From Chrysomallon squamiferum (lineage: Eukaryota; Animalia; Mollusca): a stretch of DNA of 64,000 nt. A program made the translations under genes and the position numbers. Below, in pieces: positions 4,169 through 64,000 of this stretch. The notes under the pieces were generated by a model. That model had not been told where the DNA came from and searched no databases. It saw only the letters and a list, made by a program, of their open reading frames with translations. Location: the NCBI GenBank assembly GCA_012295275.1, contig CM022671.1, forward strand, positions 31,806,001-31,870,000. The letters run 5' to 3'. Position 1 is the stretch's first letter, and each line of letters opens with the position of its first letter.

Positions 4169-4403
4169 TTAAATTTCAACTGGAACCAGTTGGGGAGTTT
4201 TCTCATCCAGTAAGGCCTGTGGATCAATAGGCTGGACTCTAACTGGAACTTGGATCATTTCCTGCAGCTTCAAAGGACTGAGGTTGTTCAAGACCTCAAC
4301 ATTGTTTGTATGGTCAGAAACACTGTCTAGAAGCAGACTGAGAAAAAATAAAAGTTAATAATTAGTTGTAAAATATATTACAATCTGAAATAATAGATAT
4401 TGA

Positions 4404-4443
<40 letters not shown>

Positions 4444-21975: not shown

Positions 21976-22010
<35 letters not shown>

Positions 22011-22561
22011 TAGATAGATAGATACACCTCAGAATTTCCACCAAATGATTGTTCAGCTCCTCCTTTAGTCCAGACAAAATAACATGAGTGAACTTGAAAT
22101 TCCTGCAGCCACCAAACTAGTTTACTGGGCAGCCACAGATGTATGTAGGACGTGCTTATTTACATTCTTTACACTGCACTTGTTGGTGGTGATGCTATAT
22201 ATTTTGCTTGAATTTAATGCTAGCTATGGCTTCTAAGACAAATGAGAGTGTCAGTCATGGTGTCAAATGTAAACACCAGTCCATATCAATCCAAGATAAA
22301 GTAGAACTGTTGACATCTACAGTACTGGTTCATCAACTGTTTATGATATAAAGAAGCAAGCTCTTGTATTTCATTTATTTATTTAATTTACATTTAATAT
22401 TTGTTTAATTTAAATTTCCTGCAGTCTGTGGTGTACTTTAGATGCATGTGTTGATGAATTATTATTATGTGACCACATTTGGTCCAGCAAAATGGTTAAT
22501 CCAGCAAGGCTTTGGAACCAAGAGTGCTGGCAAATTGGTGGTGTACAGCACACATATATTG

Positions 22562-22596
<35 letters not shown>

Positions 22597-22610
22597 TAAC
22601 TATATATGTA

Positions 22611-22651
<41 letters not shown>

Positions 22652-22674
22652 AGAGAGAGAAAAGAGAGAGAGAG

Positions 22675-22718
<44 letters not shown>

Positions 22719-28700: not shown

Positions 28701-31700
28701 GTTTTTTATTTGTTTTCTGCTGTCCAGTCTTAACAACAGAAATGTACAGTTTACATATATCTGTATTTTTGTAGTCGTGATATCATTAATACGAGGTAGA
28801 TATATTTGGTCTAATATTTATTCTAGTATGAAACAAAATATAGCTATTAGATTACTCTGTACACAGTGATGTTGAAATTCCAGTCATAACAGAGTAAAAT
28901 GGAGGTGTTCACATGCTTTGTAGCAGTTTCTACTGTGAAACTTTGTTGTTAGTGAAGACAGGTTGCCCAAAACAAAAAATATTAGCTTAGAAGTATAAAG
29001 AATTTTATTGGACTATTTATTCAAACTGCATGAGGTGTGCTGTAAATGACATGATATCACAATTACTACATACTGAGCAATCCACTGCATGATTTCATAT
29101 CACAAATGGTGCATTGATGTGTATACAAGATAATGGTCTATGTATAAAATCATTGATTCATAATGTCTCATTGTCAGTATAGCTCACCTTTGACACCTAA
29201 TTATTATTAATATAAAGATGCATCATTTTACTGATTCACTGGCTACTGAAGGATAATTGAATGTAATATAAATAGACAATGTAACTTACCCTAGATTGTT
29301 AAATATGTTGCCTAAATTTGGGGCCTTAATAGAGAAATCTCCAAACATTGAGAGAAATCCTTCAACTGAAGACATCAGAGACTTGGGAATGAAGTCAAGC
29401 TTTTGTATTTCTTTCATTATAAGACCAGATGCAAATTTTACTGCTGCTCTTCCCACCTTTTCTAAAAATGTTTTAAATCCTTCAAGTAATTTACCATTTT
29501 CAAATATCTGTCCAATATGTTTGATTGTGAAATCTTTACACTTCTGGGTCCATTTTGGGATTATTTTTAGAGAATCCAGAAATGGAGAAGGGTCAAGATA
29601 AAAACAACCACCGTTGTCATTGGTTTTCTTGCGCATGGCAACATGAATATGGCTGACACTGCAGTCATTGTTCCCTGCAGAAATGCCAATATTTTTACTG
29701 GCTTCAACATAAATACCATCACTGTCTTTTTCTGGATACTCAGTGTTTGGAATTATATTAGATATAATGATTTCATAGTTTGACAGATCAGACCCTACTG
29801 GCCTCAGAAGCAGAGAGCCATCCTTTTCTTTGAACACCATAGCATTCACTGGACAAGGTATCTGCAAAACATGAAACAGATTTCAGCTTTTAAATTTTTA
29901 TACTGTTTTAGATCATTAAAATATCACAAAGAAAAAAGAAATTATATATGGTAATGGAGTACATATGAAAATATGATTTCAGATATTTAAACATGCTTAA
30001 TTTTTGCAGTTTTGTATGTATGTATGTAGTAGTAAAATATTTTCATGAATTTTTCATTTTTTTGAGATACATGAATGCATGATCCATATATAGTATATTT
30101 ACATGTTAGGAGATGCATGCAAACATTTACATCTTTGGAGACATATGATGTATGTATATAATACATGCATGTTTATCCATGTATACAGTAAATTTACATG
30201 TTTTGAGATGCATGGAATGTATTTGTATACTGACATGTTTGAAGATGCATATTTACAATATGTGCTTTTGAATGCATGAATGTATGGATACAATATATTT
30301 ACATATGCTTTGAATGCATGAATGTATGTAAACAGCATATTTATATGTGCTTTGCAATGCACAAATGGATGTATACAGTAAATTTACATGTACATTGAAT
30401 GTATGAATGTATGTATACAGCATATTTGCATGTGCATTGCAATGCATGTGTAGAGCATATTTACATGTGCTTTGAGATATATGAATGCATGCATACAGTA
30501 TATTTAAATGTATTATATTTACATGTTTTTTTGAGATATATGAATGCATGCATATTTATATTGATTGGAGATACATGAGATTTAGATCTGTTTGCATATG
30601 CATCTATATGCATTTACATGTGTGTGTGTATATATATATATATATACAGTATATCCAAATATAACAATGTTTTTTGAAATATTTCCTGTGATAAAGACAA
30701 ACATGTTTGTAAACTAATTTAACTAATATTCTGAATATTTACTGTCCAATCCTTGTTGCTTTCCCAAATCAAGTCCACACCAGGTGTTGTGTATTTTTTA
30801 CAGGTGTCTGTTGGGTAGGTACCACAACCACATGTATCATCACATCCTTTTCTTTGACTAGGAAACTTTTCGTAGAATTTGTTGCCAAACAAAGCATGGA
30901 TTGTAGATTTAACTTTCTCAACTCTGAAAAGGAAAAGCACAAAGATACTTTCATTCATTTATATGAAGCTGTAAGACACAAAATGTATTTTGGGATTCAA
31001 CACGATATAATCATAGGTCTGCCATTCTAAGGGAGGAGGCAGGCAGAAACTGATCTCCAAATTAGGGTAAAACATAAACAAATGTTGAACTTCTCTTTAT
31101 CTGTGTAAAATTTGGACAATCAAATCCTTGGCCTCCTGCCTTTAACCCATGTACACAGCTGTTTTTGTTTGCTAAATGGGATAGTTTGTATTATTATTTG
31201 GAAACAAAAACAAATTCAGTTTAATAAATATTAAAAGTTAATTACATAAATAAATAAATAAATAAATAAAAATATATATGTATATATATTTTTTTAATTT
31301 AAACAATTTTAACACAGTGACAAATTTTAAATATTAAAAGACAGTGACAAAAACAAGAATATCTACGCTTCTTTAAATGCCTCAAAAGATGACTGCATCA
31401 TTTCTGTAGCAAGTTCTCGACTGTCAGATGCATCCTGAAATCTCTTTGGTGCTCGCTTTTGTATGTTTTTCAAATGTCCAACTAAAGTGTCCACATCTTT
31501 CTGTATATTGATCATCCCTTTTTGAACTGAATTACCCTAAAAAATAAGAACATTCTTTTAAGAAATCCAAATTTAAAACTATTGATAAATCCTTAGTAAT
31601 TCATGATTTACTGAAATCTCATTTTAAATTCAACTATAATTACCATTTAAAAGAGTTTGTTGTATTAAATTTCTAAAATCTGCAGCAGATTATATATAAC

Positions 31701-34700
31701 TTACAATCTGTCTTAATCCCTTTTTGAATCCAGCAACAAATCCTGCACTCCTTCGCTTTCTTGATTTTTCTTGTAACTTAAGACTGGCCAACTTCAACAT
31801 GGCAATCATATCTCCAATCTCCCCTCCATTTGACACCCATGTTGATTTGTCTCCTGTAAAATAAAAAAAATTCATTTACACTCTCTTGCACTTTAGAAAT
31901 ATTCACATACCCACATGCATGTATTCAGATATGCACACACGCATACAAACACATATACATACAGATATACACATACATATAAACATACACACATAAACCC
32001 ACATGCATAATGTTCATAACCATCTCTTTTGACTTTTACTTCCCACATTAACTATTTTATATATACCATTTCAAACCAATAAGTAAAAAATAAAATAAAA
32101 TAAAATGCTCATTTTAATTTCATTCTGATTTTCTATTCCATAATTTATTTTGAAATAAATATAAGAAAAACAATGATAACAAATAAGAAAATGAATCAAA
32201 GATTTAAGTTACACAATAACTGTTTGTTTCACCTTTTTGCAATGATGTTGTCTCCCGAATAATTGAATTAGATTTTAACACTCTTGCCATTCCTAACTGA
32301 TATCTGCAAGAGAAAGGACAGACAATGGGCAATATTTTTTGTATTTTAAAAAACATTGTAGTCTTTCATTCAAATAATTTATTAAAACAGAGCATTAAAC
32401 TATTAATATGAAATTAATGTAAGACATCTATCCAATCATATTATATTTTCTTTGTAATAAATTATTTTAATGATGAATGTATAGTGTGAACATGTGCATG
32501 CATGAATGAACATATGTGTGTTCAATAACTTTAATGAACATGTGTATTAATGACATCAGATTAATAAGGCAACAAAAATTTACTTTAGCCTTGTTTCCTC
32601 CAGTGCCCGGAATGACTGCTTTGGAGACTTAGCAATCTGATGCATTAGTTTTAAGGCATTATCAGTTGCGTCACTTATTTCTTTTTCAGCAAAAGGCAAT
32701 CCAACCATAGCAACATCAGCAATGTTCTGTAAATACATAATCTATCTGTATCTTGACATTCTTTCATTAATATGTGTCTTTATTTCAGACTCTTCTTTTT
32801 TCTTGTATGATTTTAAATTTTAATGAACTGATTAGAATTGTTCTCTCTCTTTCTCAGTAACATTCCATTCTCATCTGAATTCAAATTTAATTTGCAAAGC
32901 TTACTACTTAATATTACTGCAATCAATACATAATATTAAAAAACACTCAAATAAATAAAACAAAACCATACACACATACACACACATATATATATAAGCA
33001 AGCATTCATAAGCAAAAGAATCTATACAAAATTGTAATTTTCTATTAATGAAGGATATCAAGAAAATATTTGAAAACTATTTTAAATTGGTCCCCACTCT
33101 GATAAATGCAAATACCTTTCTATTTATAAATTTTTAAACCCTCATAAAATCTTTCAGTCTTCTTTCTAGTTTGAAATTATAATTTGACAGAGTGAAATTA
33201 GTAGAAAAGAAAATATTCTGAAAATGTTTTGATGAAATGTATTCATCTCAGGTCTTCTCATCATGAATAGAAATTTAGTTTTAACCTTTAAGCACTATAA
33301 GCTTTTAAAACAATCAGTACATACATTGTAAAAGTCCATGGCATCTGAATGAAGATCTTCTACAAGTGACTGTGCACTTTCAACTGTCTCCTTGAACTTT
33401 ATCATCCAAGGGAGACCACTGAACTGATTGGCAGTTCGTGTCAGGTTAAGTGCTGCATCCAGAGCTTTCTTGGTCAAGTTTGGAATTTCACTGGTAGCAT
33501 TGACAAATGGTTCAAACACACTTTTCCTTTTAAATTTGTTGTCAGTTTCTTTATCATCTGAAAACCTTTTTGTCCTGCTGGTTGATGAACTACCATTCTG
33601 AAACTGTTTGGCCATATCATTTGCAACATCAACCATTGGTTTCATCATCTTGTCAACCATCTGGTCAAAGGCACTGGAAATATCTTTCACTAGATTCACT
33701 GAAAAGTCCTGAAATAAATTAAGATTTGCAGATGTGCTTGCAATTTTGTTTGTAGATGTACTGGTTTTTGCAAAGTTAAAAATAAAGGTCCACAAATATT
33801 ACATGCTTTCAACTGAAGCGGTTTTAAAAGTAATTAACCAAAGAAGAGTTAGCAATATCTTAAAATCCAGATAATCCTTTATTTAGATAAAATAACAGTA
33901 ATTTTAAATTATAAACTTAAATAAATAAAATTAAATATTTTAGTATGATACCTTAAATATATTCATGTTGTATTCCAGTCGTCCTTTATAACAAACTTCT
34001 ATCAACAAGATATCAAAATGAAGATCCAGCATTCCTACATGGGCCTCAGCAAACAATTTATCATCTACATTGAGATCTACAAAACCACTCAATGGTCCTG
34101 GCAGAAGAAGAATAAAAACTTAGCTTAGTTTACTGAAAATTACTAATATATCATGACTGGAATAATTTCAACAAATATTTTACACAGATACCAAAAAAAT
34201 AATTTTCCATTACATACATACATACATACATATATACATACACACCCACACACAAAGAAATATCAGAGAACTGATTTTAAATGTGTTTTAATCTGTTTCA
34301 GTTAAATACAGTTTCATTTTTTACTAAATATTCATTGTTGTTTTTGTTTGTTTGTTTGTTGTTGTGTTTTTTCACTATTTTTTTATTTTATGTACAGATT
34401 AAGCTTTGGTACAGATAAATGGGCTGATACCTGTATGGAAAATAGACTATTTTTATGAACAGAAGAAATATCATTCCAGCAAGAAATGAAATCTTACGAA
34501 ATAATGCCCAAAGACGATTTTCAAATTTGACTCCAAAACTTGCTCCTATATTTGTAGACCCAATGACCTTTATCCACTCAAATGGTGTGATCTCCAGTTT
34601 GAATTCCAACAGAACTTTGTCCAAGAAACTTCGTTTGACCCTCATCACAGTGTGATAATTGTACTTGTTTCTGTCAGTATAAATTAATAACATGATAAAA

Positions 34701-37700
34701 GAAAAATAATTCTTAAACAAGACATTTTTTTGTTGTTGTTGTTTGTTGATTGTTTCTTAATTCTTTTTTATTTCTTGCTATTGCCTATTACTTTGGGTGC
34801 TAATATTTTCTAATGGAAAGGAGTTGCCTATTTTTATTATTATTTATTAATTATGAATTAAAAAAAAAGGTTAATTAGATGCTTTGTCAGATGCTTTCAC
34901 AAATGAAAGTTAAAAATGGCATTAATTTTCTCTTTTCCTTTCATTATTTCTTGTTTTTGGTTTCAGTTTTTCACTAGTTTTCTGTGAAGTCTTGTTTTAA
35001 ACAAAACTAAATAGACAATTCTTTGCTTGTCTAATGACATTACAGTGATAATATTTATTTTTAATATTTTGTTTTTATATAATATATATAAAACATTCTG
35101 ACCTCAGCAAGACATCATGGTGTGCAGCTGTAATTTCCTTCCCCTTTGGATGTTTTCTGTATTGTTCCCGAGCCATTTTTCTAACAGTTTCATCTTCATC
35201 AAACATTGCGCTTTCAAACAATGCCAGAGCACTCTGACAACAAACACCAACAAATGTAAATAAAATATTTAAAAAACACTCTAATGGCTTTCAGTTTTGA
35301 TCATAATATTGCCAACATGCATTTGTATATTAATAAACAATAGTTTATCAGGAACCAGAAAATCATTTTTTTTTTAAATAAGAGAGATATCCAATGATTA
35401 TCAGATTTAATACAAATTAGGGTACAAAGGGTTGCAGTGGTGCTACTGCTGTTGTTGTTGTTGTTGGCAGCAGTACAAAAACAAAATTATGAAGGGGATT
35501 TTATAAAAAAAAATATATATTTATAATAATATCTCTTGGTGCTTTTGTGTCATTTTTATCATCATTATCACATTATAATCATCAACATTATCATCATAAC
35601 AATGATATAACAATTATCATCATAATAATAATCATCATAATTATGTTCATAATAATCATCATGATTGTCAGTATCACCTTAATAATCATCATCATTATTA
35701 TTATCATAATCATCAGTACTATCATCATAACAATAATTATCACCATTTCACCATCATTATAATCATCACCTTAATATAATAACTGTCAGAAGTACTCATA
35801 TAGCAACATTATTCTACAGACATAATCAATCCACACTTATAAAAAACATTATTATGGTATAAAAACTGTAATGATCACAAGACAAACCTCTGTACAAGTA
35901 TAGTGTCTCAGTGCTGTTATGGCTGCCCTTTTCCATGCATGGTGAGCTGGGTTAGGATGGGTGTGGGAGATAATGTGAGGCAGAGAGCGTTTCAGTGCAG
36001 CATTGCCTAAACTGTGAATCAGAGTTGATCTTCCAAGGATGTACTCTTCTTCTTCATTTGTTATTTCAGTCAAAGGGACCGATCTTTTCACACGAATTGT
36101 AGCATTCACTGTTGTTACATATTAATTATTAAAACTCATACTGCTGCTTTACAGTTGATTTTATATTAAAAACAAGAACAATGATTCAAAGAAAAGTGTA
36201 ATAATATATATTTTTAATTAGCAGTTTTGCTGTAATTAGCTTTAAATATTTAAAAATAATAATTAAAAAAAAAAAAAAAAACATATGATTGTCAGACATT
36301 GGTAACTTTCAACTTAACCTATTGGAAGTAAATCTAGAATCTGTTTTATCAAGTAATTTTTTGGATGAGTTGAAAAACAAAAATGTGAAATCTTGACAAA
36401 TGTTTTTCATTTTTTTTTAAACTGTAATTTCAGCATGTTCCATTTTTGAAAAAACCCAGATACACAGCATTAATTCTATTTCATGGTAATCATATTTAAG
36501 ATATATTTAAACTGTTTACTAGATGTATTTTTGATTTTTACATAAAATAACAATTTTTGACGGTAAGATGGGTCCTGATTTTTGTTTGTTTGTTTATTTA
36601 TTTATTTATTTATTTATTTTTTTCTTACATTAATGAAAAATTTTTATTGAAAGAATATGTATAAATTCAGATTTAAAAAATAATACTGTTAGATAAAAAT
36701 GAAATGTAATTGATGTCTCACATATGAAAATGTAAATAAATAACTAAAAACAAGCTGCCCAGTATTTCTAAATTATTCACATATTTATAACATTTTAACA
36801 TAATTATGTCTAATTTATAAATAATATACTCTGTAACTTTCAGAGTAAACAAATACAGTAAACAAATCCACAAAGTAACTGCCATATTGTTTTATGAAAG
36901 ATTTCCCTGATGTAATGTTGGCACCATGACATCATTAGCACTCAAAAAAGAAAATAAATTACTAGCAATTTATTTATAGTGTCTTATTTTGTTTAGAAAA
37001 AACTCATAACCTGGAAATGTATAACATATATTTATGCTATTGCCTTTGCACACCAATCTATATAAGATAATTAGCAAATCCTTGCTGATCAGGTTTGGTT
37101 TTGAAATCTACATAGAACTTTCATTAATTATTTTAATTATTACTTTTTTAAATATAATTAATTTAAATGATTGTCAAGCCAGAATATTATTAACCTAAAT
37201 GATAGTCAAGACAGAATGTAATTAATTTAGATGATAGTCAAGACAGAATATAACTAATTTAAATGATAATCAAGACAGAACATAATTAATTTGTTTTTAC
37301 TGAAAGTTTAATTAAAGAGATTAGATTCATATCTGGAAATGTACACATAATGAAGACTTTAAAACTTACCCTGTTTGTGTTTGTGAATCCAGCTTTCAAT
37401 TTTTTCTACTATGCGTTCTGCCTCCAGTGTTCTTTCCTTGGCTAAGTTTTTAGCAAGTGAACCCAAAGCAAGACAAGCCCGCCGTTGTGTTAGTGTGAGA
37501 TTCATAGACCCTGGTTTCAAAACAAAAACAGCATTCAAATCATCATTCTGACATTATCTTCTTTTTTTTTTCCCTTTTTTTAAATAATATAATATATAAT
37601 TGTTTTTCTGTTTTTTTTTTTTTTTTTTGAGAGAGCTGTTTTTTTTGTAGTTAGGTATATATGATTTTTTTTTTTTTCATAAAAATACATATAATTTAAA

Positions 37701-40700
37701 TTGTAAAAAGTCTTCAGATAAAATTATTAAATTGTAGATGGTCATAATCAGTCATTATTTCATTTACTTTTAATCTATAAATTAAAGAAGTGGTTTGAAA
37801 AAATATTAAGTACAATTGGTAAATTAAAAATTAAATAAATTACAAAACAAATTTTATAAAAAATATAAATAAGCCAAAAGTAAAATACCTTACCATGTAA
37901 TGAATTATTTACACCCAGGCAAAACCGTTCAATAGCTTCTATAAAATCCTGTAAAATAATAATGTATGTATGTATGTATCTATCTATCTATCTTGGCACA
38001 GTCAGCACATTTTGAAATAAATTTCCTTCTCAAACTAATCAGCATATATAAATTTTTGAAAAAAAAACAACCTTGAAAAATAAATCTATTGATAACATTA
38101 ACAAAAATAAAAAATAAAAAATAAAAAAAATGCTAAAGGAGAAAATTTAAATAACTTGTTTCTACTGATCCATCTTAAAACTGTATGCTTTAGCATCTGT
38201 AACAACTCACCTGTGTTGGTTTCTTGATTACAATGCAGTGTACAAACACTCTTCTGATCTCATCCTCATCTGGTTCAGCAACATTCAGCACTTCTTTCAG
38301 AATAATCTGCTGGGACACAACATCACCTGCTCGAGCCACCAAATCAATGTACACACGTCGAGTTTCTTGACACCTCTCGTCTTTGGAACTGCAAGTTTTG
38401 TTTAGAGTTGACTCCACATGATCACGATAGTCTGATTCATAGAGACTCTGCAGCAAAATTCTAATGTTTTGAATGCATGAAGAACGATTTGCATCAGCTG
38501 CAAAGATCAAGCAGTAATTGAAATTAGAAAAGAAAAATATGATTTTAAATAATCTAAACCTGAATCATGGAGAATTTGCAGAAAAACCCTGATGTTTGGA
38601 ACACACAGCTGGAAAGTTCGAGCAGTAATTAAGATAAAATAAAAACAGTTTGAAATATATTATCATTAAGTCATTGCATTCAGAAAATAAGTTTGTTTTA
38701 TTATTTTTTACAGAGAAAAATATCACTGCAATGAAAAGATAACATTTTTACAAAATGGAAGTTACGACTACCTTAATATAACATCTATATGATGGACAAA
38801 TCAGTGTCTAACACTAATCAAGGTAGATGTTCTTAACAAGCTTTATAATCAAATTTAAGCAAAACTTTAATATACTCTGGTGGGTTTTTTTTTTAGTTAA
38901 TAACAGAAACAATGTGCTGAGAATGGATTAACAACCAAGATATGATGTAACTGATAATCTTACACATATATAAATAAATAATAATTTGCCAATTATTTCT
39001 AAATCATTAGTTATAATTTGGCTGATTTGTTAATAATGTATTCAGATATATTCAGTGTAAAGAGATATAAAGAAGATAAAAAGATGAAGATGAATACAGA
39101 TATAATAAGCTTTATGAAACATAAACATAAATATAAGAACTTACTAATGTCAGAGATGTTATGGACACATTCCATATTTTCTTCTATATGAGAAATAACT
39201 TCATTCAGTTGTTTCTTTTCTTCAGTCTGTAAAATCAATGTAAAGAAAATTTGTTTCATTATATGAACATTTAATATCATAAGACTTTGACAGAGAAGAA
39301 ATATCATATTGCAAATTATTTTGTATTTAGCTACAACATTACATTTTATTTTTCTTATTAATACAAGTAGTAAGTATGTGTAAATCTTGAATGTATCTCT
39401 GTTTTCAACTGTCTGTTAAGATATTTCCCATTTCAACTACTGTTCCACAAGTAATATATTGAAGACCATGATTTCCTGATTATTGAAATGTGCCAGTAGT
39501 CACTTAAAGTAACCCATGTATTGACAGCAGCACTCTCAGACTTTGTAAAATTTCAAAATGTTTATCAATATTCAAAATTATTTTGCAGTTTCATCTTACA
39601 TGATCAGTTTGGAGTGATCCAGGTATCAAACCATCAAAGGTTGCCCATTGATTTCCATGGTATCTGAAACAACATAACATTGTGTATAATATTTTTGCTT
39701 CATAATGGTCAGTATATATTATATAATCATAACTTTCTGTAACTTCTTAAATTAATTTTTAAACTATGCAAAAGTCATTTCCTTTTCACATCTCATTATA
39801 AACATAAGTTTGATCACTGATACAGAAGTGTTAAACAAAATACTGATTGTCAAGTAACTTCAAAATTTTTAACTCACCTCTTGCCATCCAGTTTTACATG
39901 GATTTTTGCTGATGCATGAATGTCTGGAAAATCTATAACAAAACAAATTAGCCAGAGAACATTATTGACTGAACCCAAACTGTTGGAAAAATCACTGTGT
40001 ACAGAGGAGAACAATTTTCCCTTGTTTAACTAGAAATTTGTTTTGTTTATTCTAGAGTTGTAAGAAATACACAGCATCAGTCAGTTAGGTGTGTCATGTC
40101 TGCAGTTGTGAAGGAGTAAATAAATTGATGAAATTAAAAATATATATACAACAGTGTTGCTATGAAAGATAATAGGTTGCCCAAAAACAATAAAATAATA
40201 TGAAATATAAAGAATTTTATTGGACATTTTATTTCTACTGCCACATATACACCTTTGAAACTTTCTTAAAGGATTATGTTAAGTTTGTACTGCAGTAGAA
40301 TAATGTAAATAGTCATATTTAGTATAATGTGGAGATTTCATTTTAACTGGTAAAGCACTGGATTTCTGAGTGAGGATTTCTAAGTGAGTTCTCAAAGGAA
40401 AATGAATTAAATGGAAGTTGAGTTAAACACATTCAAATTGTTTCTGTTACCTCCAGATGTATCAATTCTGTGAACAAATTCACCAGGTTCTGGTTTCCAA
40501 AAAAAAAAAAATACATAATACACACACACACACAACATTAGGCCTATCAATGACTGCATGTTTATTTGCCATTATTATTTTTATTATTATTATTATTGTT
40601 GTTGTTGTTGTTGTTGTTGTTATTGTGGTTGTTATTATATTTACTATCATTTTTATTTTTATATATTTATATTGTAGGGTCGCTATCAATATTAATATTT

Positions 40701-43484
40701 GTATTTTCCTATCAGTAATTCTGTATGTGAATATTTATTTTTTCAACATCCGATCAAAGGTTTACTGTTATGTCAAATATTACTGACTGCATTAAAACTG
40801 TCATAAAATTTTGTGATTAAATTTATTCAGAAAGGATAAATCTGTAAACACTTATATTTGTAATAATGTAATATTTTCATGAATGCCAGAAGTTTATAAA
40901 AATCAATGATTAATATAGTTACCTTGTTTTGTATCGTGGTTGTTTTTTCTTCAGTATAACAGAGTCATGTGCTGTTGCTGAATGGAGTGTGCCTTTGGTA
41001 TCATAATGCAGAATCTTATCGGAAAAAGAAAAGCAATTATAAATACTTTTAAATAATTAGTAAATACACCTTTTTCTCTCTTTTTTTTATTTTGTACCGA
41101 TCTTTTTAAAATATTTTTATTAACTTTTATCAGTTATTACTTGAATATGAGATTAATCAAACCTTCTCATAATATCGTTGACCTTGCTTATCACTGTAAT
41201 GAAGTCTCTTTAAGGTCATTCCAGTCAATGTTTTTGAAGCATCATATTGATGATCAAGTTCACCTGTAAAGAAAAGTTATTAAATTTCCAACAGACTATT
41301 AAAATTATTAAATTTCTAACATACTACTGAATTATTAAATTTTCAAAATACAACTAAAATTAATTTTCAAAAAACAACTAAAATTATTAAATGTCCAACA
41401 TACTACTATGATTATTGAATTTCCAACTATTAACTTCTGCTGTCACACTACAACTGAAAATAGTCAATCTTCAACAGAATAAAATTCAAATAAGGAAAAT
41501 ATTTTCTTTTTGCAACCAAGTTGAAGAAAGTTTACTTCTGATATTAATCTTCTGATGTTACTGTTATAACTGTAGCTGTAACTACTTTTACTTTTTTCTT
41601 TTCTACAATTATTTATGTTACTATTACTGATAAGTACAACAGCCAAAAAAAAAATATATAATATTAATTATCTCTCTCTCTACTATTTATTTCTTTGTCT
41701 CATACATTTACATCTCTTACTTGAGATATATATATGTATATATAAACAGGGCTCGAAACTCGTCTGGTGTATGGAGGCTCAAAAATCCCTTATTCATTTT
41801 GTAATATTCAGTGACCCTAATTTGTTTTTGAAAGCCCAAACAAAAAATATTCATATTTCAGCTTTTAGGTGAAGGGAAACGTGAACTTCATTGTTAGCTT
41901 TTGAAGTAAGATTTAAAAATATGCTTCGAAGAGTCATTTACATAAATATACCAACATATGTGATACTGAAATTCTTCTTTGTCGAACGCTCAGACAAGTA
42001 CTCAAGTGGTCTACAGTCATTCCGAATATCGTAAAAATTAATGTCATTAGTCTTTTCAATAGGCACCAAATTAACATACCAATGAAACAAATCTATTCAA
42101 AGAGAATAAGAAAAAGAATAAAGGAAAAAGAAATTGGAACACCTCGAAGCAGACGACAGAAGTTAAGACAATATTCGGGAAGGTTCGGATTTGACTGCGT
42201 GTTCGGCCGAGATGTTCCGAATGGTCACGAGCAGTTTTACGATACTGGGTCAGCCAGACTCAAGGTCAGCAACACTCGTAGAATTAATAATGGCTCTTCT
42301 GTTATAACTTATGGAAAAAAAAAAAATAATAAATACAAAAAAGTCGCCCAAATAATATTTTGGGGATACTAACATCCCAGTCGCCAAACGCATCAAAAGC
42401 TAACAATGAAGTTCACGTTTCCCTTCACCTAAAAGCCATTTCGAGCCCTATATATACTGTTATACACTCCCAAAAAAGAAACGCAAAATGGTTGATTTCT
42501 TAGTTAACTATTGTAAACTGACACATATGAATATGATGACATTTGGTGATTCAACATATAGCTTTTGTTACAGTCGCCAAAAAGCAGGTAACACAAAATA
42601 AAGGCTATGATCGTGTTTATTAGCCAAAACGTTCCCGCATGCAAACCACGTTACCGGTGCACGAGGTTTATAAAAATTCAAGGTTTTCGAATACTTCTGT
42701 TCGTTATTTTTGTTCTGACCCAACATCAAACAAATGCCACGAATGAGTGAACCGCAACGAAAGAACTGTCTGGTTTAGTGACGAGGCTTGATTTCTGTTT
42801 CGTCGAGCTGATAGAAGATGTCGAGTTACAGACGTCGTGGTGAACGTGTTGCTGCAAACTGAATACAGGAATCGGACAGATTTGGGGGTGGTAGTGTGAT
42901 GGTGTGGGCAGCAATCTCATACACTGGCAGGACCAACCTGGTTCACATCCAAGGCAACTTAACGGCAAAGAAATACCGAGATGAAATTTTGCAGCCACAT
43001 GTCGCTTATGAATAATGGTACAATGCGAGACCACATACAGCCAGACTCACAACATCGTACCTGCACAACAATAACATTCAGGGCCTGCCCTGGCCCTCTA
43101 AATCTCCGGATTTGAACCCTATAGAGCATTTATGGGACGATTTTGATAAACCCCTGAGGCAGCATCAACCACAGCCACAGAATCGTGCTCAGTTGGAATT
43201 ATTCCTTCAGACAGTGTGGGCCACCATTCCACAAGGTGTAATTCGTAATGTCATTACTGCCATGGGAAGGAGATGTCAGGCAGTGCTGGACTCCCTTGGT
43301 GGGCACACAAGGTATTGATATTATACTGTTACAACCTTGAACTTTAACCTTTTCAATATAATACCATCAATATTAATGAATTGCGAAAGTGTGTGTAAAA
43401 TGTGAACATTCTGCTGCTTTTTGTTGATCCATTAGATAGATATTCCCAATGTCAATACAATCTACTTCTGCGTTTCTTTTTTTT

Positions 43485-43581
<97 letters not shown>

Positions 43582-45889
43582 GAGAGAGAGAGACAGATGT
43601 TAACCAAAATGGTCGTTTTCAGTTGTGTTATACTTCCATTCATTCTCTTCCGAAAGCTGAAAAACAAAAAATTTATAATAATTTTAATTTGACATTCCAT
43701 TTGTTGCCAAAATAAGTATTCATTAAGATGGTTTTCTATCAGTTGTCCTTACAACATCAACCTTAGTCACTTATTTACATCATCAGTTTTTAACTGTGAC
43801 AATAAGAAATCAAAGAGAATGGATGATGGTTTATTTTTTTTATTTTTTTTTTTTAATATTATGGCAACTTTTAAATACTTTATTGAATCGTTAGAAATTT
43901 TTGGGTTGTTGTTGTTTTTTCCTACATTTCAGCAAAATCTTCATAAACTGGTTCTTTTGAGTATCACTTAATTAACGGCAAAGAATCGTCACGGAAGGAA
44001 GTTAGAAAATTCTTGACAAACTAAATATTGTGACAAGACTTAAACAATTTATCAAATTTTAAAACGTTTATTATTCATCATACTTTATTAGCAGAAAAGA
44101 TTGCTCAGCATGATATCTACATTAACATATCATCAAAGATACATTTCAAATTGCTTGCCCATTATTATCATCTGCTGTAGAGTTAATATCTACTTTTATT
44201 TTTATTCTCTTTAAAAATAATACAGTAAACCTCGCCTAAGTCGTCACTTTCGGGACCAAGATTTTTCTGACGACTTAGAGATATGATGAGTAATACTAAG
44301 TCGTCATAATGATGACTTACACGTAACTCGTCTTAACGACTACTTATACATGTTAGTAGGCAATATGACGACTTATCCTAGCGTCTTCTCTAATAAAAGC
44401 AGCCACAATAATACGCTGTCATCGGTGTTACACGTGTTCTGTGGTTCATATCTCTGGAGAATGTCCTTCAGGTTTCTATTTTCCAGTCAACTACTGCTGT
44501 ATTAACACCCCCAGATTCACCCTCTTTAAGCACTTTTCCAATTCCCCACCTTTCCTTAAAACGATCAGTCCAGCTGTCATTCAGTTTTTCACCATCCTTG
44601 TGACCAAGCTGCCTGGCAAAGCCTCGTGCTTTTTGAAGTAGCATTTCGCCATCGATACGAATTTCAGTTCTAGCAGCCATTTGTCGAAACCATTTAATTA
44701 GAGCGGAGTCGACATCTTCAAAAGCTCAACCTTCTCGATGGCCTCTTTAGATTTGTTGTGAGAGGAATCTTGAATTTCTCCGCCGTCAGACCCTTTTTCT
44801 CGCCAGGACTGACTTCACAATACTTAATTATTTCATATTTCTTCATATAAGGATTGGTATTAGCCGTCTCTTTCAGTTAGTCGCCATTTTGTACACTCAA
44901 AAAGTCACGAATATTTCCCAAATAATAATTTAATTCAACGCACCAATACACGAGGCAAGTCACGTGCATATCAATATCCAAAAGCACAGGGCTTGTTTAG
45001 ATCCGAGCCAATAGCGGGTTTAAACGAAACACTTTATTGTATGTACATAACAGTAGCTGCCGAGCGATTTCCCACAGACGACTTAGAGCTAGAAATTAAC
45101 TGCAGTTTATGTTACCTGGGACTAATCTTCAAGTGACGAGTTAGACAGGTATTTTTTATTGAAAATAATGTTACAAAAAATCGGGATTTTCGCTGAAGTG
45201 ACGCACTTTGACGACTTAAACGCAGACGATTTAGGCGAGGCTTACAGTAATAATAATAAAAACTTTATTACACATTTTTAGTTCTCTTTATTACTAGATA
45301 AATAAAACAATAATAAATATAAGGCCAGGATTAATTTATTTGTCACTTGATGGATCTACTGCTGATGCTTAAAATCTTGAAATGAAATATAAATGTAAAA
45401 AAGTGTTTTGGTCTTACAATTATATAAATAATATTATGATCAAATTCTTTTTTTTACAAAAAGAAAAATGTAAATTTTCAAATTGTCAAAAAAGTCATGG
45501 TTTAATTTTTACTTCCATGAACACAGATATGGTTGATACAATTTTGGAAAATAGGAATTATATTTACATCTCAAGCAACTGGGTTTATAAAAATTTCATT
45601 TGAAAGTAAACAAATCGGTAAATCTTAAATGAAAAAAAAGTCTAGCCTAATGAATGATCTATACATAACATTTTCATGATGGACTGAAATTTAAGAAACC
45701 AGAATATCAAAGCAAAATCGGATTCATATTCATAAAACAAAATAAATAATACATACTTTTACTTTGACAGAAAACAGACTGGCCAAAGCCTTTTTAATTA
45801 CGACAAGTTCCTTTTGGTCTTCTGGGTGAAAATGGACCAGATTAATTGATCCATCATCTGCAGTCTCAAACAGAAAACTGGGAGGAGGA

Positions 45890-45922
<33 letters not shown>

Positions 45923-45926
45923 TATA

Positions 45927-45970
<44 letters not shown>

Positions 45971-48640
45971 GTATATGTATATGTATATGTATGTTTCTGT
46001 TTTGTTTTAATATTCCATTACAGCTCATACAATAACTTTTGATATATATATATATATATATATATATACAGTGGTACCTAGACTTACGAGTTTAATGCGC
46101 TCCGTGACCGAGCTAGTATCTCAATTTGCTCGTATATCAAATCAATTTTCCCAACTGAAATTAACTGAAATACCATTAATCCATTCCAGCTTAGAAATTA
46201 TTTTAACGCCTTTGACTGGAGTTATAGTCTTTATTGACTCCTTCAGCTTCAGTTTAGTACATATCGTTGAAATACTACGATCGTACTAGCTTGTCAAGTC
46301 GACTATATGCACACCTTGCAATCGTAAGTCGAGGTGCCACAAATATATTTCTCGGTATATATATATATATCACCGAGAAATATATCAGCTATTGGTTGTC
46401 TAATCAAAGGTAAATATAACAAAATGATGTAGACTCTATATAAAAAATAAAATTAATTAAACAAAAGTGCATGTCTTCTGTCAGGACTGGTCATTTATAA
46501 AAGCACAATATTGCTCATATAAGATTCAAACTGATATGTAAAAAATGATATTTCATCTGGTCATACTCACTGTTTTGACAAGTCCCAGTTTTTTGGATTC
46601 TCTTGGACTAAAAAATTGAAAAACATTTATTGAGAATGTTTCTTTTTAAATGCAAATAGATATATGTATATAGACATGCACACAGAAAAACACCTATATA
46701 TAATAGACACACACACATTTTTTTGAGAGGGGTTGGGGGTATTTTTTCTTCTTTCTTTCTTTCTTCTCTCTTTTTCTCTCTATTAAATTTGTTTGTGTTT
46801 TTAATTTGTTTGGTTGATGTTTTTGAAATGAAATAATATTAGAAACAGCATCAATTAAATTAATTAAATTCAGTATTAATTAACTTACACAGTCCATCTG
46901 TTGTGAACTGGACAATGCTATCAACCTCCAAGGAATGCAGACGATGTCCTCTCTCTGTCTTGTTAACTGGACACACGTGAAACTGGGTAAAACCAAAAGA
47001 AACAGTAAACTTAATAAACATAGAATATAAGGAGAAATGCTGTACACTGTAACTCAGATATTAGAACACTGTGAAAATTCCATGTCAAATCACCCAGTGG
47101 TCTACCGCAATTGAAGATGGTAAGGTTAAAATTGTGGGGATAGTTTTCCAGTCCATCAATATCTAAAACAAAAACGTTTCAGCACCCTCCCATTTATCAG
47201 ACATCCGATATGTTAGTTTATTTCAACAGATTTTTGAAACCACATTCAACTTACACATGGACTATCCTAAGTTTTAATTTGTTTCATTGCAAAACTGAAT
47301 TTGCTGGCTCTGTTTTGTAATCGTGAATAATACTTTTGATAATGAATGACTTTGTAACTGAGATCTATCTCCTGCTATGATCTGTACACTGGAGTTGGAG
47401 TTCGAACGAACAAGCCACCGATCGTTCTCCTCTTTGGCAGGAAACATGTTCTCTTCCATTAACTCTGACCACACAGAAATAACTTCCATCAGTGAAGACT
47501 ACTGCGTGTCAACCATGTCGCTTGTACAGTCAGGGATCTTCTCGGTCTCAAACGGCAATTTTGAACAGCCAGTAAGAGTCCTATGTATAATCTAATCGCC
47601 CGGCCACTGTCTGTCGACTAACCCTAGGAGCAAAGACTTCACGGTGAGAAAACGAGTACCAGTCTTCAAGGGGCGTTGACACTCTGGATTTGTGATTCTT
47701 CCGATATAGAGAATCATCGGTCTCATGGGACCGAGATAAAGTGGATAGCAGCCTGCTGTACCATACTCACGGCTTGAATGTTCGTTTACGTTGTTCGGCA
47801 GTAATGTATGGATTTCCTATGGTGATTTTATTTTCATCGCTGTGGATGTGTGACATGAAGTCTAAATTATTTTTATACCCTAACATGGACGGGCATATTC
47901 TGTTGTTGTGTTTACACTCAGTGTTTTACAATGATTAGGTTTCATCTTGCTTTTCAGTCTTTCTGAAATTTCTGTAAAGTTTCTTTTTGCAATGGGTGTT
48001 ATTATGATGAAAAAAAAATGTAATGAAAATTCTTTGTGATTATAAGCTGCCTGACAAATAATACAACTGGGAGAAGATCTATTTTCACAACATTTGCTTC
48101 ATTAATAATTACAAGGTCTGCTCGAAATAGTCTGAGTATTTTAAATGCACATGTTAAAAAAAGATTGCTGGATGAATTCCCTTCATTCTTTTTTTTTTTT
48201 CTTTTGTTGTTGTTGTTCTTCTTCTTCTTTTCTTTTCTTGAGTGCTGTTTTTTCATTGAGGAATTTTTTATTATTTTTTTTCATTATGAGTTGAATTGTA
48301 TTATTATTATTATTATTATTATTGCTGGTTTGTTTGTTGTTGTTATTTTTTTGTTTGTTTTTTTCTTTTTGTTTTCTTTTTTAATTTACTTTATTATTTT
48401 ATACTATTTTTATTTTATCATTATTTTATAATTTTTATGATTTCTGAATGTATTAATAATATGATCCAATATGATCACATAAATTTTTTTTATATAAATT
48501 GTATGAATTTTTAAAATTTATTTTCTGGTTTTATTAATAAACGTGTGATTATATATTAATAAGATATTAATTAGGCTACTGAGCTGATACTTTTCAACAA
48601 TATAAAATATTTATCATATTTAAAAGAAATAAAAACAATG

Positions 48641-48674
<34 letters not shown>

Positions 48675-48699
48675 ACTACTACTACTACTACTACTACTG

Positions 48700-48743
<44 letters not shown>

Positions 48744-48975
48744 CAAATAAAATAAAATAAAAACAGCAAAACAAAACAACAGTAAAAGATAGATAAATAA
48801 GACGAGTCGAAACCTGCAGTTAACCTACCTTCAACACGGTGGTGATATTCTTCATACCAAATATATTGGAATTGGCGGAATACGTATAGTGGTGACTGAA
48901 ACCATCTTCAAAGAAAAATGCCACAAACTCTGGAACAAAAAGCAATATGCACACAAAGCATAAGCAATGCGCCAT
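4169..48975 (-). CDS. Gene A: giant (~4,850 aa, 47 exons) single-pass membrane protein; LLT/Vitellogenin_N + LECT2/M23-like + FN3-like repeats + PAN + cadherin-like + TM
   Basis: Hand-built exon chain in transcription order: 48829-48975, 46889-46982, 46571-46607, 45757-45877, 43605-43656, 41163-41263, 40923-41014, 40451-40497, 39878-39932, 39600-39663, 39145-39226, 38211-38497, 37894-37948, 37370-37510, 35888-36108, 35103-35233, 34498-34670, 33952-34097, 33325-33708, 32584-32726, 32233-32303, 31705-31853, 31367-31536, 30743-30923, 29290-29861, 28076-28398, 27029-27232, 25990-26166, 25063-25313, 24592-24766, 23544-23614, 23015-23172, 20573-21769, 19646-19740, 18681-19214, 17783-17960, 16829-17013, 14405-15093, 12789-14227, 9235-12473, 8584-8883, 7797-7919, 7417-7561, 6955-7096, 6376-6458, 4996-5948, 4169-4337. 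Intron phases match throughout, except a TG acceptor before exon 8 and a 1-nt shortfall in exon 44. Starts MAHCLCFVCILLFVPEFVAF (signal-like) and ends ...QLVPVEI*. Confidence 0.85.
4996..5948 (-). CDS. Gene A exon 46: cadherin-like/bacterial Ig (Big_9-type) domains + transmembrane helix
   Basis: KEDNILKASIEFVDAEGDELIFAIKTQPKHGTANVSLEGMLQYMPQQDFTGVDEIEISA...ITIRVDNVNDAP, then a second degenerate copy (DADANDSL...PNFTGSANVSFIIKD). These are followed by hydrophobic GLAAVIIAVIVVSGVTVLALIAAASF and basic RYYLKSRNK. Confidence 0.8.
8584..21560 (-). CDS. Gene A array of FN3/Ig-like repeats
   Basis: Recurrent unit D-x-T/S-P-P..G.V.DG...D.D.Q...W.GF.D.ESGI..Y...GT....DI...Y.V.V.A.N.AGL...SDG. Examples: IDRTPPVVGHVYDG...WIDFFDPESGIARFQWGVGT and VDKTSPVAGWIHDG...WDKFFDPESKI. 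Covers the ORF-track hits of 1070, 501, 393, 240 and 151 aa. Confidence 0.8.
15100..16540. repeat. Extremely AT-rich degenerate tandem repeat
   Basis: Recurring TATAAATATAATTTATTTTAAATACTTTTT-like units over ~1.4 kb, with very few G/C. Confidence 0.7.
17540..17705. repeat. Intronic minisatellite, 25-bp unit
   Basis: About 6 degenerate copies of CATGGATCCAGGACATCCACAGATA. Confidence 0.85.
18410..18665. repeat. Intronic minisatellite, 28-bp unit
   Basis: About 9 copies of CTGATTTCAAACTGAA(C/T)xATAxTTTTAA, abutting the exon 35 donor. Confidence 0.9.
20800..21020 (-). CDS. Gene A PAN/Apple domain within exon 33
   Basis: QCARKCIDYGKKCISFDYETHTETCDLHE matches the PAN core C-x3-C-xn-C-x-SF-x-Y-xn-C-x-L, followed by a Y..YER motif. 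Confidence 0.75.
22562..22714. repeat. Compound microsatellite (CA)n/(TA)n/(GA)n
   Basis: Read directly. Similar arrays: (ATT)n 178-241, (TTC)/(ATT) 20381-20445, (TA)/(TG) 43487-43578, (AAT)/(ATT) 45892-45970, (CTG)/(CTA)/(ATA) 48645-48740. Confidence 0.95.
29570..30860 (-). CDS. Gene A LECT2/peptidase-M23-like domain (exons 24-25)
   Basis: Spliced sequence RKGCDDTCGCGTY...TTPGVDL...IPCPVNAMV...VEASKNIG...SHIHVAM...LDPSPFL parallels LECT2 (R.CD..GCG.Y...H.GVD...APF.G...KG..IG...SHVH...DPT.YL). Confidence 0.7.
30060..30620. repeat. Degenerate tandem repeat
   Basis: Recurring CATATTTACATGTGCTTTG...ATGCATGAATGTATG...ATACAG units. Confidence 0.7.
35103..48975 (-). CDS. Gene A exons 1-16: signal peptide + large lipid transfer (Vitellogenin_N/MTP-like) module
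   Basis: LLT hallmark motifs appear in the expected order: FEDGFSHHYTYSA; FLFETADDGSINLVHFHPEDQKELVVIKKALASLF (cf. G.I..V....D....NIKKG..SLF); ENDHFG (cf. E.D..G); RRVYIDLVARAGD; LALGSLAK; LIHSLGNAA; RAAITALR; DEDETVR. Recognised by eye, no HMM run. Confidence 0.8.
37169..37291. repeat. Minisatellite, 32-bp unit
   Basis: About 4 copies of GATAGTCAAGACAGAATxTAATTAATTTAAAT. Confidence 0.8.
41747..42450. mobile_element. Non-autonomous hAT-like DNA transposon (MITE)
   Basis: Terminal inverted repeats CAGGGCTCGAAA / TTTCGAGCCCTA. A perfect 44-bp subterminal inverted repeat pairs 41861-41904 with 42393-42436. Flanks are TATATA-like and there is no credible transposase. Confidence 0.7.
42465..43488 (+). 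mobile_element. Decayed Tc1-family (DD34E) transposon
   Basis: Transposase C-terminal half is recognisable: FGGGSVMVWAAISYTGRTNLVHIQGNLTAKKYRDEILQPH...NARPHTAR...LPWPSKSPDLNPIEHLWD...RRCQAVLDSLGGHTRY*, with stops and deletions. Imperfect TIRs AAAAAAGAAACGCA / TGCGTTTCTTTTTT sit in a TA context. Confidence 0.9.
44223..45247 (-). mobile_element. Internally deleted Tigger/pogo transposon
   Basis: TA-flanked TIRs CAGTAAACCTCGCCTAAGTCGTC / GACGATTTAGGCGAGGCTTACAG. The minus ORF 44468-44680 encodes a CENP-B-type HTH (IDGEMLLQKARGFA...SWTDRFKERWGI...GES). Confidence 0.88.
46069..46342. mobile_element. Tigger-like MITE
   Basis: TIRs CAGTGGTACCTAGACTTACGA / TCGTAAGTCGAGGTGCCAC, inserted next to a (TA)n run. 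Its left ~120 bp is an inverted match to 50970-51072. Confidence 0.75.
47250..47800 (-). mobile_element. Highly decayed Tc1-like transposase remnant in gene A intron 1
   Basis: Minus-strand fragments VSRQTVAGRL (cf. VS..TV.RRL) and VVFTDGSYFCVVRVNGREHVSCQRGER (cf. V.FTDES.F....DGR..V.R..GER), interrupted by stops. Boundaries are approximate. Confidence 0.6.
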
Positions 48976-49583
48976 TGCTGACAGCTAGTAGGCACTTGAA
49001 ATCTTTTTTTTTTACCGATATATCTTTTAAATAACGCTTCTTAGTTTGTCAGAAAACATATAACTGGTTTTCTACCAGAAAGAAATTTCAACAACATAAT
49101 GGTTTAAAATAGACTGCAGACTGTTTCAATAAAACTTTCTTTTGAATCTTTTATTTTGAACACGTTGCCAAAATAAACGCTCATTTCAAACAGTACTGGT
49201 TGTCACATTCGATAATGAATCATATATATAACAAATGAATAATAAGAAAGAAAGAAAGAAAATAAATAAAAATCTACGAGATGACGCCCTGACGACGGTG
49301 CATTATCATTATAATCATAATCTTGCGTGAATAGTCATGTTTCGTATCAGCAATAACAATTTTTCAAATTAAGATAAATCAAAACTATGACCTTGTAGGT
49401 AAGTGGTTTAATATTAAATATACGGTTTCAATATATCTGAAACTAACAAAGCATGAGCCATTAAAAGTGTACAAACAGCTACTATTCAGAATTCGGAAAG
49501 ATAAAAAGAACAGAAAACAGTCTGTGAAATCTGTCGTCAATATAAACCAGGGAGGGGTTTAAGTCACCACTTAAGATTCGAAA
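48976..49583. promoter_or_regulatory. Putative bidirectional promoter / 5'UTRs between genes A and B
   Basis: 608 bp separate the divergent ATGs (48975 minus, 49584 plus). CpG is visibly more frequent than in the introns, and tandem TGACG half-sites lie at ~49282-49295. Transcription starts were not determined. Confidence 0.6.
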
Positions 49584-56721: not shown

Positions 56722-56756
<35 letters not shown>

Positions 56757-63571: not shown

Positions 63572-64000
63572 GTAAGAATTGATGAATTTAATATAATTTT
63601 AATAGTGTTTAGTATAGAAATTAAAAGTTTCTAAATGTCCTGTATAAGTTACAACACAATATGAAATTACCAGTATATTAATTTTTTTGATTTTTTAAGT
63701 TTGATTTTTGTTTATTTAATTTTTTAATTTTAACTTTTTTTATTTTGATTTTTTTTATTTGTAATAAAAGAGATTAAGAAATTTAAAAAATCTGATGCAG
63801 AAAATGGAATAATGAAATTTATTCATGTATCAGCTTTATCCTAATATCATAATCATTGTAAATCCTTAATTTTTTTTGGTATTTTAGATCATTATTTTTC
63901 TCTGATGTTTTCTTGACAAAACTTTTAGGCTAAATGTTCCCAAATCTGTTTTATAAAAAAAAAAAAATTTAATTTTTTTTTTATTGGTTAATTCAAGAAT

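Follow-up and report, generated by a model that had tools for sequence, protein, structure and literature searches.

A predicted membrane-anchored precursor with a vitellogenin/MTP-type LLT module in Chrysomallon squamiferum, probably from an undescribed LLTP subfamily

Can a lipid-transfer (LLT) module of the vitellogenin/MTP type form the head of a membrane-anchored, receptor-like protein? MTP, vitellogenin (Vtg), apoB, apolipophorin (apoLp), and apolipocrustacein (apoCr) are presented as soluble LLTPs in the accounts cited here (PMC6717300, PMC1783640, PMC10799875). The window, by which we mean the entire 64,000-nt stretch of the mollusc Chrysomallon squamiferum analyzed here (contig CM022671.1, positions 31,806,001 to 31,870,000), carries a gene on its minus strand (4169..48975), the strand of every feature described below. 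A 47-exon splice model predicts a type I membrane protein precursor of ~4,832 aa. The 16 mostly tiny, ORF-invisible exons of the original prediction proved exact in their coordinates: from the start ATG at 48975, exons 1-16 run to 35103, measure 37-287 nt, and are in the majority absent from the ORF track.

The splice model uses GT at all 46 donors and AG at 45 of 46 acceptors, with mutually compatible intron phases from exon 9 through exon 44. The exception is exon 8 (40497-40451; feature 40451..40499), placed by a gap-free homolog alignment, whose non-canonical TG acceptor (40498-40499) lies directly 3' of a T run; the 47-nt version of this exon agrees in length with an RNA contig to within 1 nt. 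In exon 44, both the splice model and the homolog alignment indicate a one-base frame slip at a run of nine A (6999..7007), which was bridged with X in the protein model. If genuine, this slip would terminate the protein upstream of the transmembrane (TM) helix, but residues downstream of it are conserved among homologs; the two irregularities both lie at homopolymers and are likely assembly errors. The earlier claim that one frame continues to a TM helix stands, with caveats at these two points. An alternative that skips exon 45 by using a weak donor further up in exon 44 would preserve the frame at the cost of conserved residues, and was rejected.

Do the LLT exons and the TM exon belong together, as was first proposed? 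An RNA contig links the LLT exons to exon 25, with exons 12 and 15 both on RNA contig X3 record 8, and exon 1 covered by RNA contigs of X1 and X4, whose alignment ends at the donor at 48829. Direct RNA linkage ends at exon 25-26, with none for exons 27-47, and from there the link comes from homologs. Residues 10-4733 align with Haliotis rubra P0001 in a single HSP at 41% identity (47.6% between the Haliotis ortholog and the window protein in the LLT region). Homolog P0122 (5,143 aa) runs from signal peptide through TM in a single ORF on one 16,087-nt Logan contig, and the contigs of single-ORF relatives hold both the LLT and the TM ends. Against a homolog-only profile the window protein scores 729 bits (best of 50 shuffles, 1.0); taken individually, 14 of exons 1-16 match that profile colinearly (E<0.05), all except exons 8 and 10. 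RNA up to exon 25 and homologs onward therefore support a single gene from LLT to TM.

The LLT head begins in exon 1 (48829..48975), where a hydrophobic stretch (aa 4-22) marks a predicted signal peptide (aa 1-~20) ahead of the first barrel strands, with RNA contigs covering the exon. An N-terminal beta-barrel (aa ~21-270, exons 1-10, 39600..48915), drawn from an ortholog model and fold alignment, is followed by an alpha-helical domain (aa ~275-575, exons 11-16, 35103..39226) with a furin-type site inside (36083-36094). The fold was modeled with AF2 on the Haliotis (abalone) ortholog rather than on the window protein itself (pLDDT 87.5). Its barrel is all-beta with a central helix and aligns with that of lipovitellin, apoB, and MTP; the first 11 Foldseek ranks and the first seven VIA ranks all go to MTP, lipovitellin, vitellogenin, or apoB. 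The best Foldseek match is MTP (E 7e-18), and VIA aligns 484 residues with lipovitellin (Z 21.6, rmsd 6.1), at an identity to solved LLTPs of only 10-15%. These models support the LLT barrel-plus-helical fold that had been read from the sequence.

Pfam Vitellogenin_N exceeds the gathering score in 3/6 full-length homologs and reaches E<=0.01 in 24/30 relatives, and four relatives match its barrel part; the window's single LLT exons, which are too short for Pfam, gave 0/6 matches. With phmmer against PDB sequences, the Haliotis ortholog matched EGF domains only. The barrel disulfide, described as a feature of MTP, lipovitellin, and apoB (PMC6717300), is absent, aa 21-270 containing one Cys. No vWD appeared in any Pfam scan of homologs or window exons, in agreement with the initial reading, and neither DUF1943 nor DUF1081 matched in those scans.

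What lies beyond the head? Predicted strands define a C-sheet-like amphipathic beta sheet (aa ~596-682, exons 17-18, 33952..34612) with an alternating hydrophobic face over 67 sequences. It is followed by a long amphipathic helix bundle (aa ~683-1000, exons 19-24, 30887..33708) that carries two more RxKR/RxRR sites and whose fold matches do not go beyond generic helical bundles; its resemblance to TTYH and pore-forming-toxin folds (Z 10-14) was likewise regarded as generic. Next comes a domain with a LECT2/M23 (LytM) fold (aa ~1001-1150, 29556..30886), assigned through a Haliotis asinina ortholog model that aligns 116 residues with human LECT2 (Z 13.2, rmsd 2.6); Pfam M23 is over cut-off in two relatives, and phmmer with the window M23 exon and P0164 as queries gave no match. 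The consensus metal motifs of M23 are HxxxD and HxH. The window domain shares the fold and retains HxH, but differs from LECT2/M23 in lying within a giant precursor and in having T for the first His of HxxxD; most members lack this His, and both motifs are complete in 9 of 49 segments.

A second helical region, a Cys-containing beta domain, and a helical linker (aa ~1165-1545, 25063..29555; with a SAP-like motif in the helical region of some relatives) lead to a long amphipathic beta sheet (aa ~1575-1722, 21631..24667), a candidate MTP-type A-sheet of six to seven long predicted strands with one hydrophobic face. The MTP cavity is described as formed by a C-sheet and an A-sheet, the latter having strands of double the length (PMC6717300), and the predicted strand lengths here match that pattern, those of the A-like sheet being longer. 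Both sheets are retained from Capsaspora to molluscs, which suggests a hydrophobic cargo. MTP_lip_bd matches weakly in two Mya paralogs, at the later sheet. In the search for its identity, profile A5 found no MTP match, and the sheet retrieved unnamed clusters only from the ESM Atlas (best 0.90). Comparison of the two sheets by hhalign gave a probability of 7%, and in whole-model fold searches for the A-sheet the M23 and helical parts filled the matches. A model containing both sheets was weak (pLDDT 67, pTM 0.42), and a complex of the LLT module with the A-like sheet, predicted without alignments, scored 0.06 and carries no weight here.

A PAN/apple domain (20821..21024; PF00024, E 3.7e-4, slightly under cut-off here and over it in relatives) precedes the stalk of ~15-18 FN3/Ig-like repeats of ~105 aa each (8765..20691), recognized by 18 self-profile matches and by fn3 in homologs. 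A possible GH16/ConA-like domain (10103-10930) interrupts this array, a weak lead from GH16/beta-glucanase similarity below cut-off (E 0.017-0.45). Big_9/cadherin-like domain(s) (5109..5822; PF17963, E 1e-8 on the window exon) precede the membrane, and in the alignment two EGF domains of the homologs are absent from the window copy. In all, ~60% of the chain is FN3/Ig/cadherin-like. Similar repeat arrays without LLT occur in the neighboring gene and in bacterial proteins. For the juxtamembrane domain, a GAIN/ZU5-like identity was considered and dropped, as Pfam lent it no support in 11 proteins.

The predicted TM helix (aa 4740-4758, 5040..5108; KD 2.95 over 19 aa) aligns with that of homologs and leaves a cytoplasmic tail of ~70 aa (exons 46-47, 4169..5039) with a PDZ-like hydrophobic end and no NPxY in the window copy. 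Across the family, tails appear receptor-like because NPx[YF] (17/52 versus 1.4 shuffled) and PDZ-like ends (14/52 versus 3.0) are enriched over shuffles, both counts being inflated by kinship of the sequences. Dileucine (6/52) and Yxx-phi (24/52) motifs were as frequent as in shuffles, and an excess of these was rejected.

Does the head remain attached to its anchor? The window protein contains seven R-x-[KR]-R sites where 0.72 are expected. One, RVKR (aa 586-589, 34631..34642), lies at the junction of alpha domain and C-sheet, where R-x-[KR]-R recurs in 45 of 46 distinct homolog segments. A juxtamembrane basic site (5883..5894) is reduced to KR in the window copy, without the P4 Arg, and is a full R-x-[KR]-R in 59 of 74 redundant homolog rows. 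In apoLp-II/I and apoCr, furin is documented to cut at RX(R/K)R (PMC1783640). Strong conservation of the furin-type sites makes it likely that the LLT head is severed from its anchor. The original suggestion of a tethered or shed LLTP therefore keeps its two elements, an LLT module and a predicted TM, but a covalent tether is disfavored; cleavage, followed by non-covalent retention or shedding, is the likelier outcome.

How does this protein compare with known systems? The large subunit of MTP (6i7s, 8eoj) has the same order of barrel, helical domain, and C-sheet and likewise no vWD. It is described, however, as a PDI-bound protein of ~900 aa that is not secreted (PMC6717300), whereas the window protein has sheets ~900 aa apart, furin-type sites, a 3,000-aa stalk, and a predicted TM, at 4,832 aa far from an LPD_N-only intracellular protein. 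Vitellogenin/lipovitellin (1lsh, 9enr) shares the LLT module, signal peptide, and proteolytic processing (the last two predicted here). Vitellogenins are recognized by LPD_N, DUF1943, and VWD (PMC10799875), of which the last two are absent from the homolog and window-exon scans; the barrel disulfide is also lacking, and M23, PAN, FN3, cadherin-like, and TM regions are extra.

Apolipophorin-II/I, apolipocrustacein, and apoB share the LLT module, long amphipathic helical regions, and the RX(R/K)R motif (PMC1783640). The apoLp-II/I and apoCr site is placed between motifs N19 and N20, at ~aa 725 (PMC1783640), and that of the window protein at the alpha/C junction, at ~aa 589. DUF1081, which with LPD_N forms the apolipophorin/apoB set, is absent from the same scans, as is vWD, whereas a predicted membrane anchor is present. 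A coral "vitellogenin-like" skeletal protein was set aside as having another architecture (Vg_N, VWD, and kinase; PMC4890752). Proteins of the same family and domain order, apart from the EGFs missing in the window copy, occur in Haliotis (XP_046568758), Branchiostoma (XP_078573992), and Capsaspora (KJE92161), under the automatic labels "uncharacterized" or "Vitellogenin domain-containing"; identity with the Haliotis protein is 41% over the full length.

We did not find this family described in the literature. Members occur in molluscs, amphioxus, hemichordates, echinoderms, Capsaspora, and a choanoflagellate, the last two indicating that it probably predates animals, and the order LLT, sheet, bundle, M23, sheet is conserved across holozoans. 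A search for shorter LLT-only relatives returned one fragment. The TM is a module that comes and goes at the C-terminus: 22 of the 41 long members have one, and the 19 without it (some being truncated models) imply that anchoring is not needed for the core role of the family. The family tree was made with a quick method, has long branches, and leaves out classical LLTPs, and therefore gives the family no position inside the superfamily. We regard the window protein as one of an LLTP subfamily that is undescribed and probably pre-animal, and that is predicted to be membrane-anchored in this species.

The explanation we lean towards, with slightly more confidence than doubt, is a cell-surface head that captures lipid or microbes. 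A single precursor of ~4,830 aa, with signal peptide, LLT module, long FN3-like stalk, and membrane anchor, would be cut by furin-type enzymes into chains that remain associated at the cell surface; the head, having captured its cargo, would then be endocytosed or shed. The C-sheet (aa 596-682) and the distant A-like sheet (aa 1575-1722) may come together as an MTP-type cavity, leaving the intervening helix bundle and LECT2 domain as a loop. The cargo would be lipid, uptake would proceed via tail motifs, and the window M23 domain would serve as a non-catalytic binding module.

A recognition receptor for innate immunity or feeding is a less probable but credible alternative, in which the LLT module would be a scaffold or opsonin, the LECT2/M23, PAN, and GH16-like domains would bind microbial glycans or peptidoglycan, and lipid would be secondary. 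Some amphioxus members do add sushi and C-type lectin domains at the C-terminal end, the M23 fold is complete in its motifs in some segments, a weak GH16/beta-glucanase similarity is present, the family occurs in microbe-eating unicellular holozoans, and immune roles are reported for Vtg and apoLp (PMC1783640). The first M23 His is nevertheless absent from the window copy and most members, the GH16 matches fall under cut-off, and the conserved amphipathic sheets suggest a hydrophobic cargo.

That the protein is an adhesion, mucus, or extracellular-matrix polyprotein, a rod of FN3/cadherin-like repeats under a degenerate, lipid-free LLT cap, seems improbable: the repeat share of the chain, the like arrays that occur without LLT, and the low identity to solved LLTPs favor it, but the domain order conserved across holozoans and the NPx[YF] enrichment, which points to endocytosis, do not. 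Two genes (a soluble LLT-M23 gene, then an FN3-TM receptor gene), or one truncated at exon 44 with a secreted product, would suit the end of direct RNA linkage at exon 26, the two frame irregularities, and the numerous database models that are fragments of one part only, but are very improbable given the compatible phases, the single HSP, the single-ORF contigs with both ends, the homopolymer position of the flaws, and the conserved post-slip residues.

Returning to the capture head, we offer a broader scenario only tentatively. The family may be a fourth, pre-animal LLTP branch, descended from an ancestral holozoan stalked capture protein whose MTP-type cavity was divided by the insertion of a LECT2 domain and an apolipoprotein-like bundle; the mollusc and amphioxus proteins would then have become endocytic lipid receptors processed by furin, a single chain acting as both carrier and receptor, and soluble LLTPs and LECT2 could be released modules. 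One published view holds that LLTPs had arisen from a Vtg-like gene by the time cnidarians and bilaterians split (PMC10799875). With a conserved family that carries the LLT module in Capsaspora and a choanoflagellate, is membrane-anchored in molluscs and amphioxus, and is fused to a LECT2-fold domain, the origin of the module would shift to before animals, lipoprotein carriers would gain a testable ancestor, and molluscs a candidate receptor for lipid uptake or microbe recognition. Capsaspora is reportedly genetically tractable, so function can be tested there; its member (KJE92161) has no TM and ends instead in a somatomedin-B-like C-terminus.

The AT-rich animal DNA of the window contains a long minus-strand gene, which we modeled as 47 exons (−) with the ATG at 48975, the stop at 4169 and 4,832 encoded aa; exon borders were set by eye, with tblastn of homologs as a guide. 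The 16 exons assigned to a large lipid transfer (LLT) module in the original prediction are exons 1–16 of this model. All 46 donors are GT and 45/46 acceptors are AG. Against a profile made from homologs only, the model scores 729 bits (maximum of 50 shuffles, 1.0), and exons 1–18 give 16 colinear matches at E<0.05. Exon 8 has a TG acceptor behind a T run, and exon 44 has a one-base frame slip within a 9-A run, read through with an X; homolog alignments support both readings, and we infer that these flaws are likely assembly errors.

For the LLT part of the spliced protein, orthologs served as proxies in Pfam scans. Vitellogenin_N was above cut-off in three of six full-length homologs and was listed at E≤0.01 in 24 of 30 additional relatives; four had matches to the barrel part. 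An AlphaFold model of Haliotis residues 21–682 (58 sequences, pLDDT 87.5) consists of a barrel with central helix, then a helical solenoid, then a sheet. Foldseek placed MTP, lipovitellin, bee vitellogenin and apoB at ranks 1–11 (E 7e-18 to 8e-7), with the first match thereafter at E 4e-4, and VIA returned the same proteins at ranks 1–7 (Z 17.7–21.6; next Z 14.7). With such proteins at the top of both searches, this ortholog model supports the predicted LLT module, although its identity to solved LLT proteins (LLTPs; MTP, lipovitellin, apoB) is only 10–15%. The barrel disulfide common to those three, as described in PMC6717300, is missing from the window protein. VWD, DUF1943 and DUF1081 had zero matches in all Pfam scans of homologs and window exons, in agreement with the earlier remark that no vWD was seen.

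By its predicted fold, the subfamily is placed in the LLTP superfamily, outside Vtg, APO and MTP. This subfamily is real, conserved and apparently undescribed; a full-text literature search, mostly of open-access papers, found no description of it, and subscription journals may contain an earlier mention.

The claim that a single frame runs from the LLT module to a transmembrane (TM) helix is supported, with the exon 8 acceptor and the slip in exon 44 as caveats. RNA carries it to exon 25: X3 record 8, a 3,494-nt contig from one of the RNA runs (all of a single study, with sequence up to ~5% away from the window), holds parts of exons 12, 15, 17, 19, 23, 24 and 25, spaced to match the intervening exons except at two places, where the spacing is off by 3 and 39 nt and stays in frame. 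By arithmetic rather than displayed alignment, its leftover length agrees to within 1 nt with that of exons 11 to 6, and the 270 nt past exon 25 match exon 26 in length. Beyond the reach of the RNA, we join exons 27–47 to the LLT part because phases are compatible, one HSP of a Haliotis rubra protein covers aa 10–4733 of the model (41% identity), and two homologs have both LLT and TM on single Logan contigs (P0122, 5,143 aa, 16,087 nt; P0124, 5,194 aa, 16,595 nt).

Among named organisms, the family occurs in gastropods, bivalves, a cephalopod, amphioxus, hemichordates and a crinoid; the named matches included no vertebrate, arthropod or nematode. In a quick tree, the window protein clusters with sequences from gastropods (SH-aLRT 100). 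The Capsaspora owczarzaki member (4,741 aa; Vitellogenin_N E 3e-16) keeps the same domain order over the stretch that starts at the helical LLT part and ends with the FN3 array, and that of Salpingoeca urceolata (1,180 aa) keeps it until the start of the M23 domain. Mollusc contamination would be an unlikely source of these two, because their identity is 21–24% and they fall apart from molluscs in the quick tree. A Logan sequence related to the Capsaspora protein contains the barrel. In a redundant set of 41 LLT-positive proteins with at least 4,000 aa, 22 have a TM helix; the C-terminus of others is formed by sushi/C-type lectin, EGF or somatomedin-B-like domains.

A second model (H. asinina 484–1678; 28 sequences, pLDDT 67, pTM 0.42) shows a C-like sheet, a long helix bundle and a compact beta domain, followed by further helices, a beta domain and a candidate A-like sheet, whose long strands number six to seven. 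For the compact domain, human LECT2 is a structural match (Z 13.2, rmsd 2.6, 116 aligned), as are LytM/M23 domains. HxxxD and HxH, which we take to be the M23 metal-motif consensus, are complete in 9/49 segments, and the HxxxD of the window copy is without its first His. The C-like and A-like sheets each have a single hydrophobic face, as seen in 67 and 54 sequences. In MTP, the cavity is built of a C-sheet and an A-sheet whose strands are twice as long (PMC6717300), from which we infer that the C-like and distant A-like sheets may form a split MTP-type cavity in this family. As to the identity of the A-sheet, MTP-type matches are weak (two Mya paralogs, E 0.007–0.017).

Exon 26 (~28150–28220, −) encodes an extracellular SAP-like motif, degenerate in the window copy and shared with the homologs P0160 (Pfam SAP E 1e-8), P0144 and P0210. 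In exon 19 (~33500–33620, −), a ~17-aa insertion with an additional RTKR site is found in none of the aligned homologs. Over exons 18–19 the X3 RNA contig is 39 nt shorter and contigs of runs X1 and X4 read through to ~33610, so the insertion may be a polymorphic indel.

After the A-like sheet come a PAN domain (−; Pfam) and FN3-like repeats (18 self-profile matches; profile made from 15 units) with a possible GH16/ConA-like insert (weak matches), then Big_9/cadherin-like domains, the TM and a 70-aa tail. Homologs have two EGFs, whereas the window protein has neither. The same FN3-like repeat occurs in 25 units in a hit from Candidatus Schekmanbacteria (P0012), and further bacterial/metagenomic matches likewise hold long arrays. 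In exons 42–46 (5826–8584, −), a basic juxtamembrane site directly precedes the conserved last beta-strand, a layout that we take to be reminiscent of GAIN/ZU5/SEA-type cleaved-but-held domains; Pfam gave no support for such a domain at this site.

R-x-[KR]-R sites number seven in the model vs 0.72 expected. One lies at the border of the LLT alpha-helical domain and the C-like sheet in 45/46 distinct segments, counting only those with the C-sheet motif located, and the juxtamembrane basic site occurs in 59 of 74 redundant rows, the window copy being reduced to KR. For apoLp-II/I and apoCr, cleavage by furin at RX(R/K)R has been documented (PMC1783640), at a position different from that of this family. 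Tails of TM-bearing relatives contain NPx[YF] in 17/52 (shuffles, 1.4) and PDZ-like ends in 14/52 (shuffles, 3.0), counts inflated by kinship. The window tail has the PDZ-like end and not NPx[YF], both being read by their presumed meanings. The most likely role, at slightly better than even odds, is that of a putative furin-processed surface protein that would capture lipids or lipid-bearing microbes.

Two transposase remnants are intronic, DDE_3 at 43016–43318 (+; E 1e-7) and Tc5-type HTH at 44468–44725 (−; E 1e-12), with very deep coverage in run X5. At 48994–49199, an X4 RNA contig goes 50 nt past 48996 unaligned with an AG adjacent, which suggests a 5' UTR exon further upstream. Head-to-head with the LLT gene, a neighbor gene runs from 52222 to 63582 (+) and past the window end; its exons include one with a weak PLAT-like match (E 0.17), a Cys-rich EGF-like one and large ones with the same FN3-like repeats, and it is best matched by proteins of amphioxus, sea star and mussel (24–40% identity).
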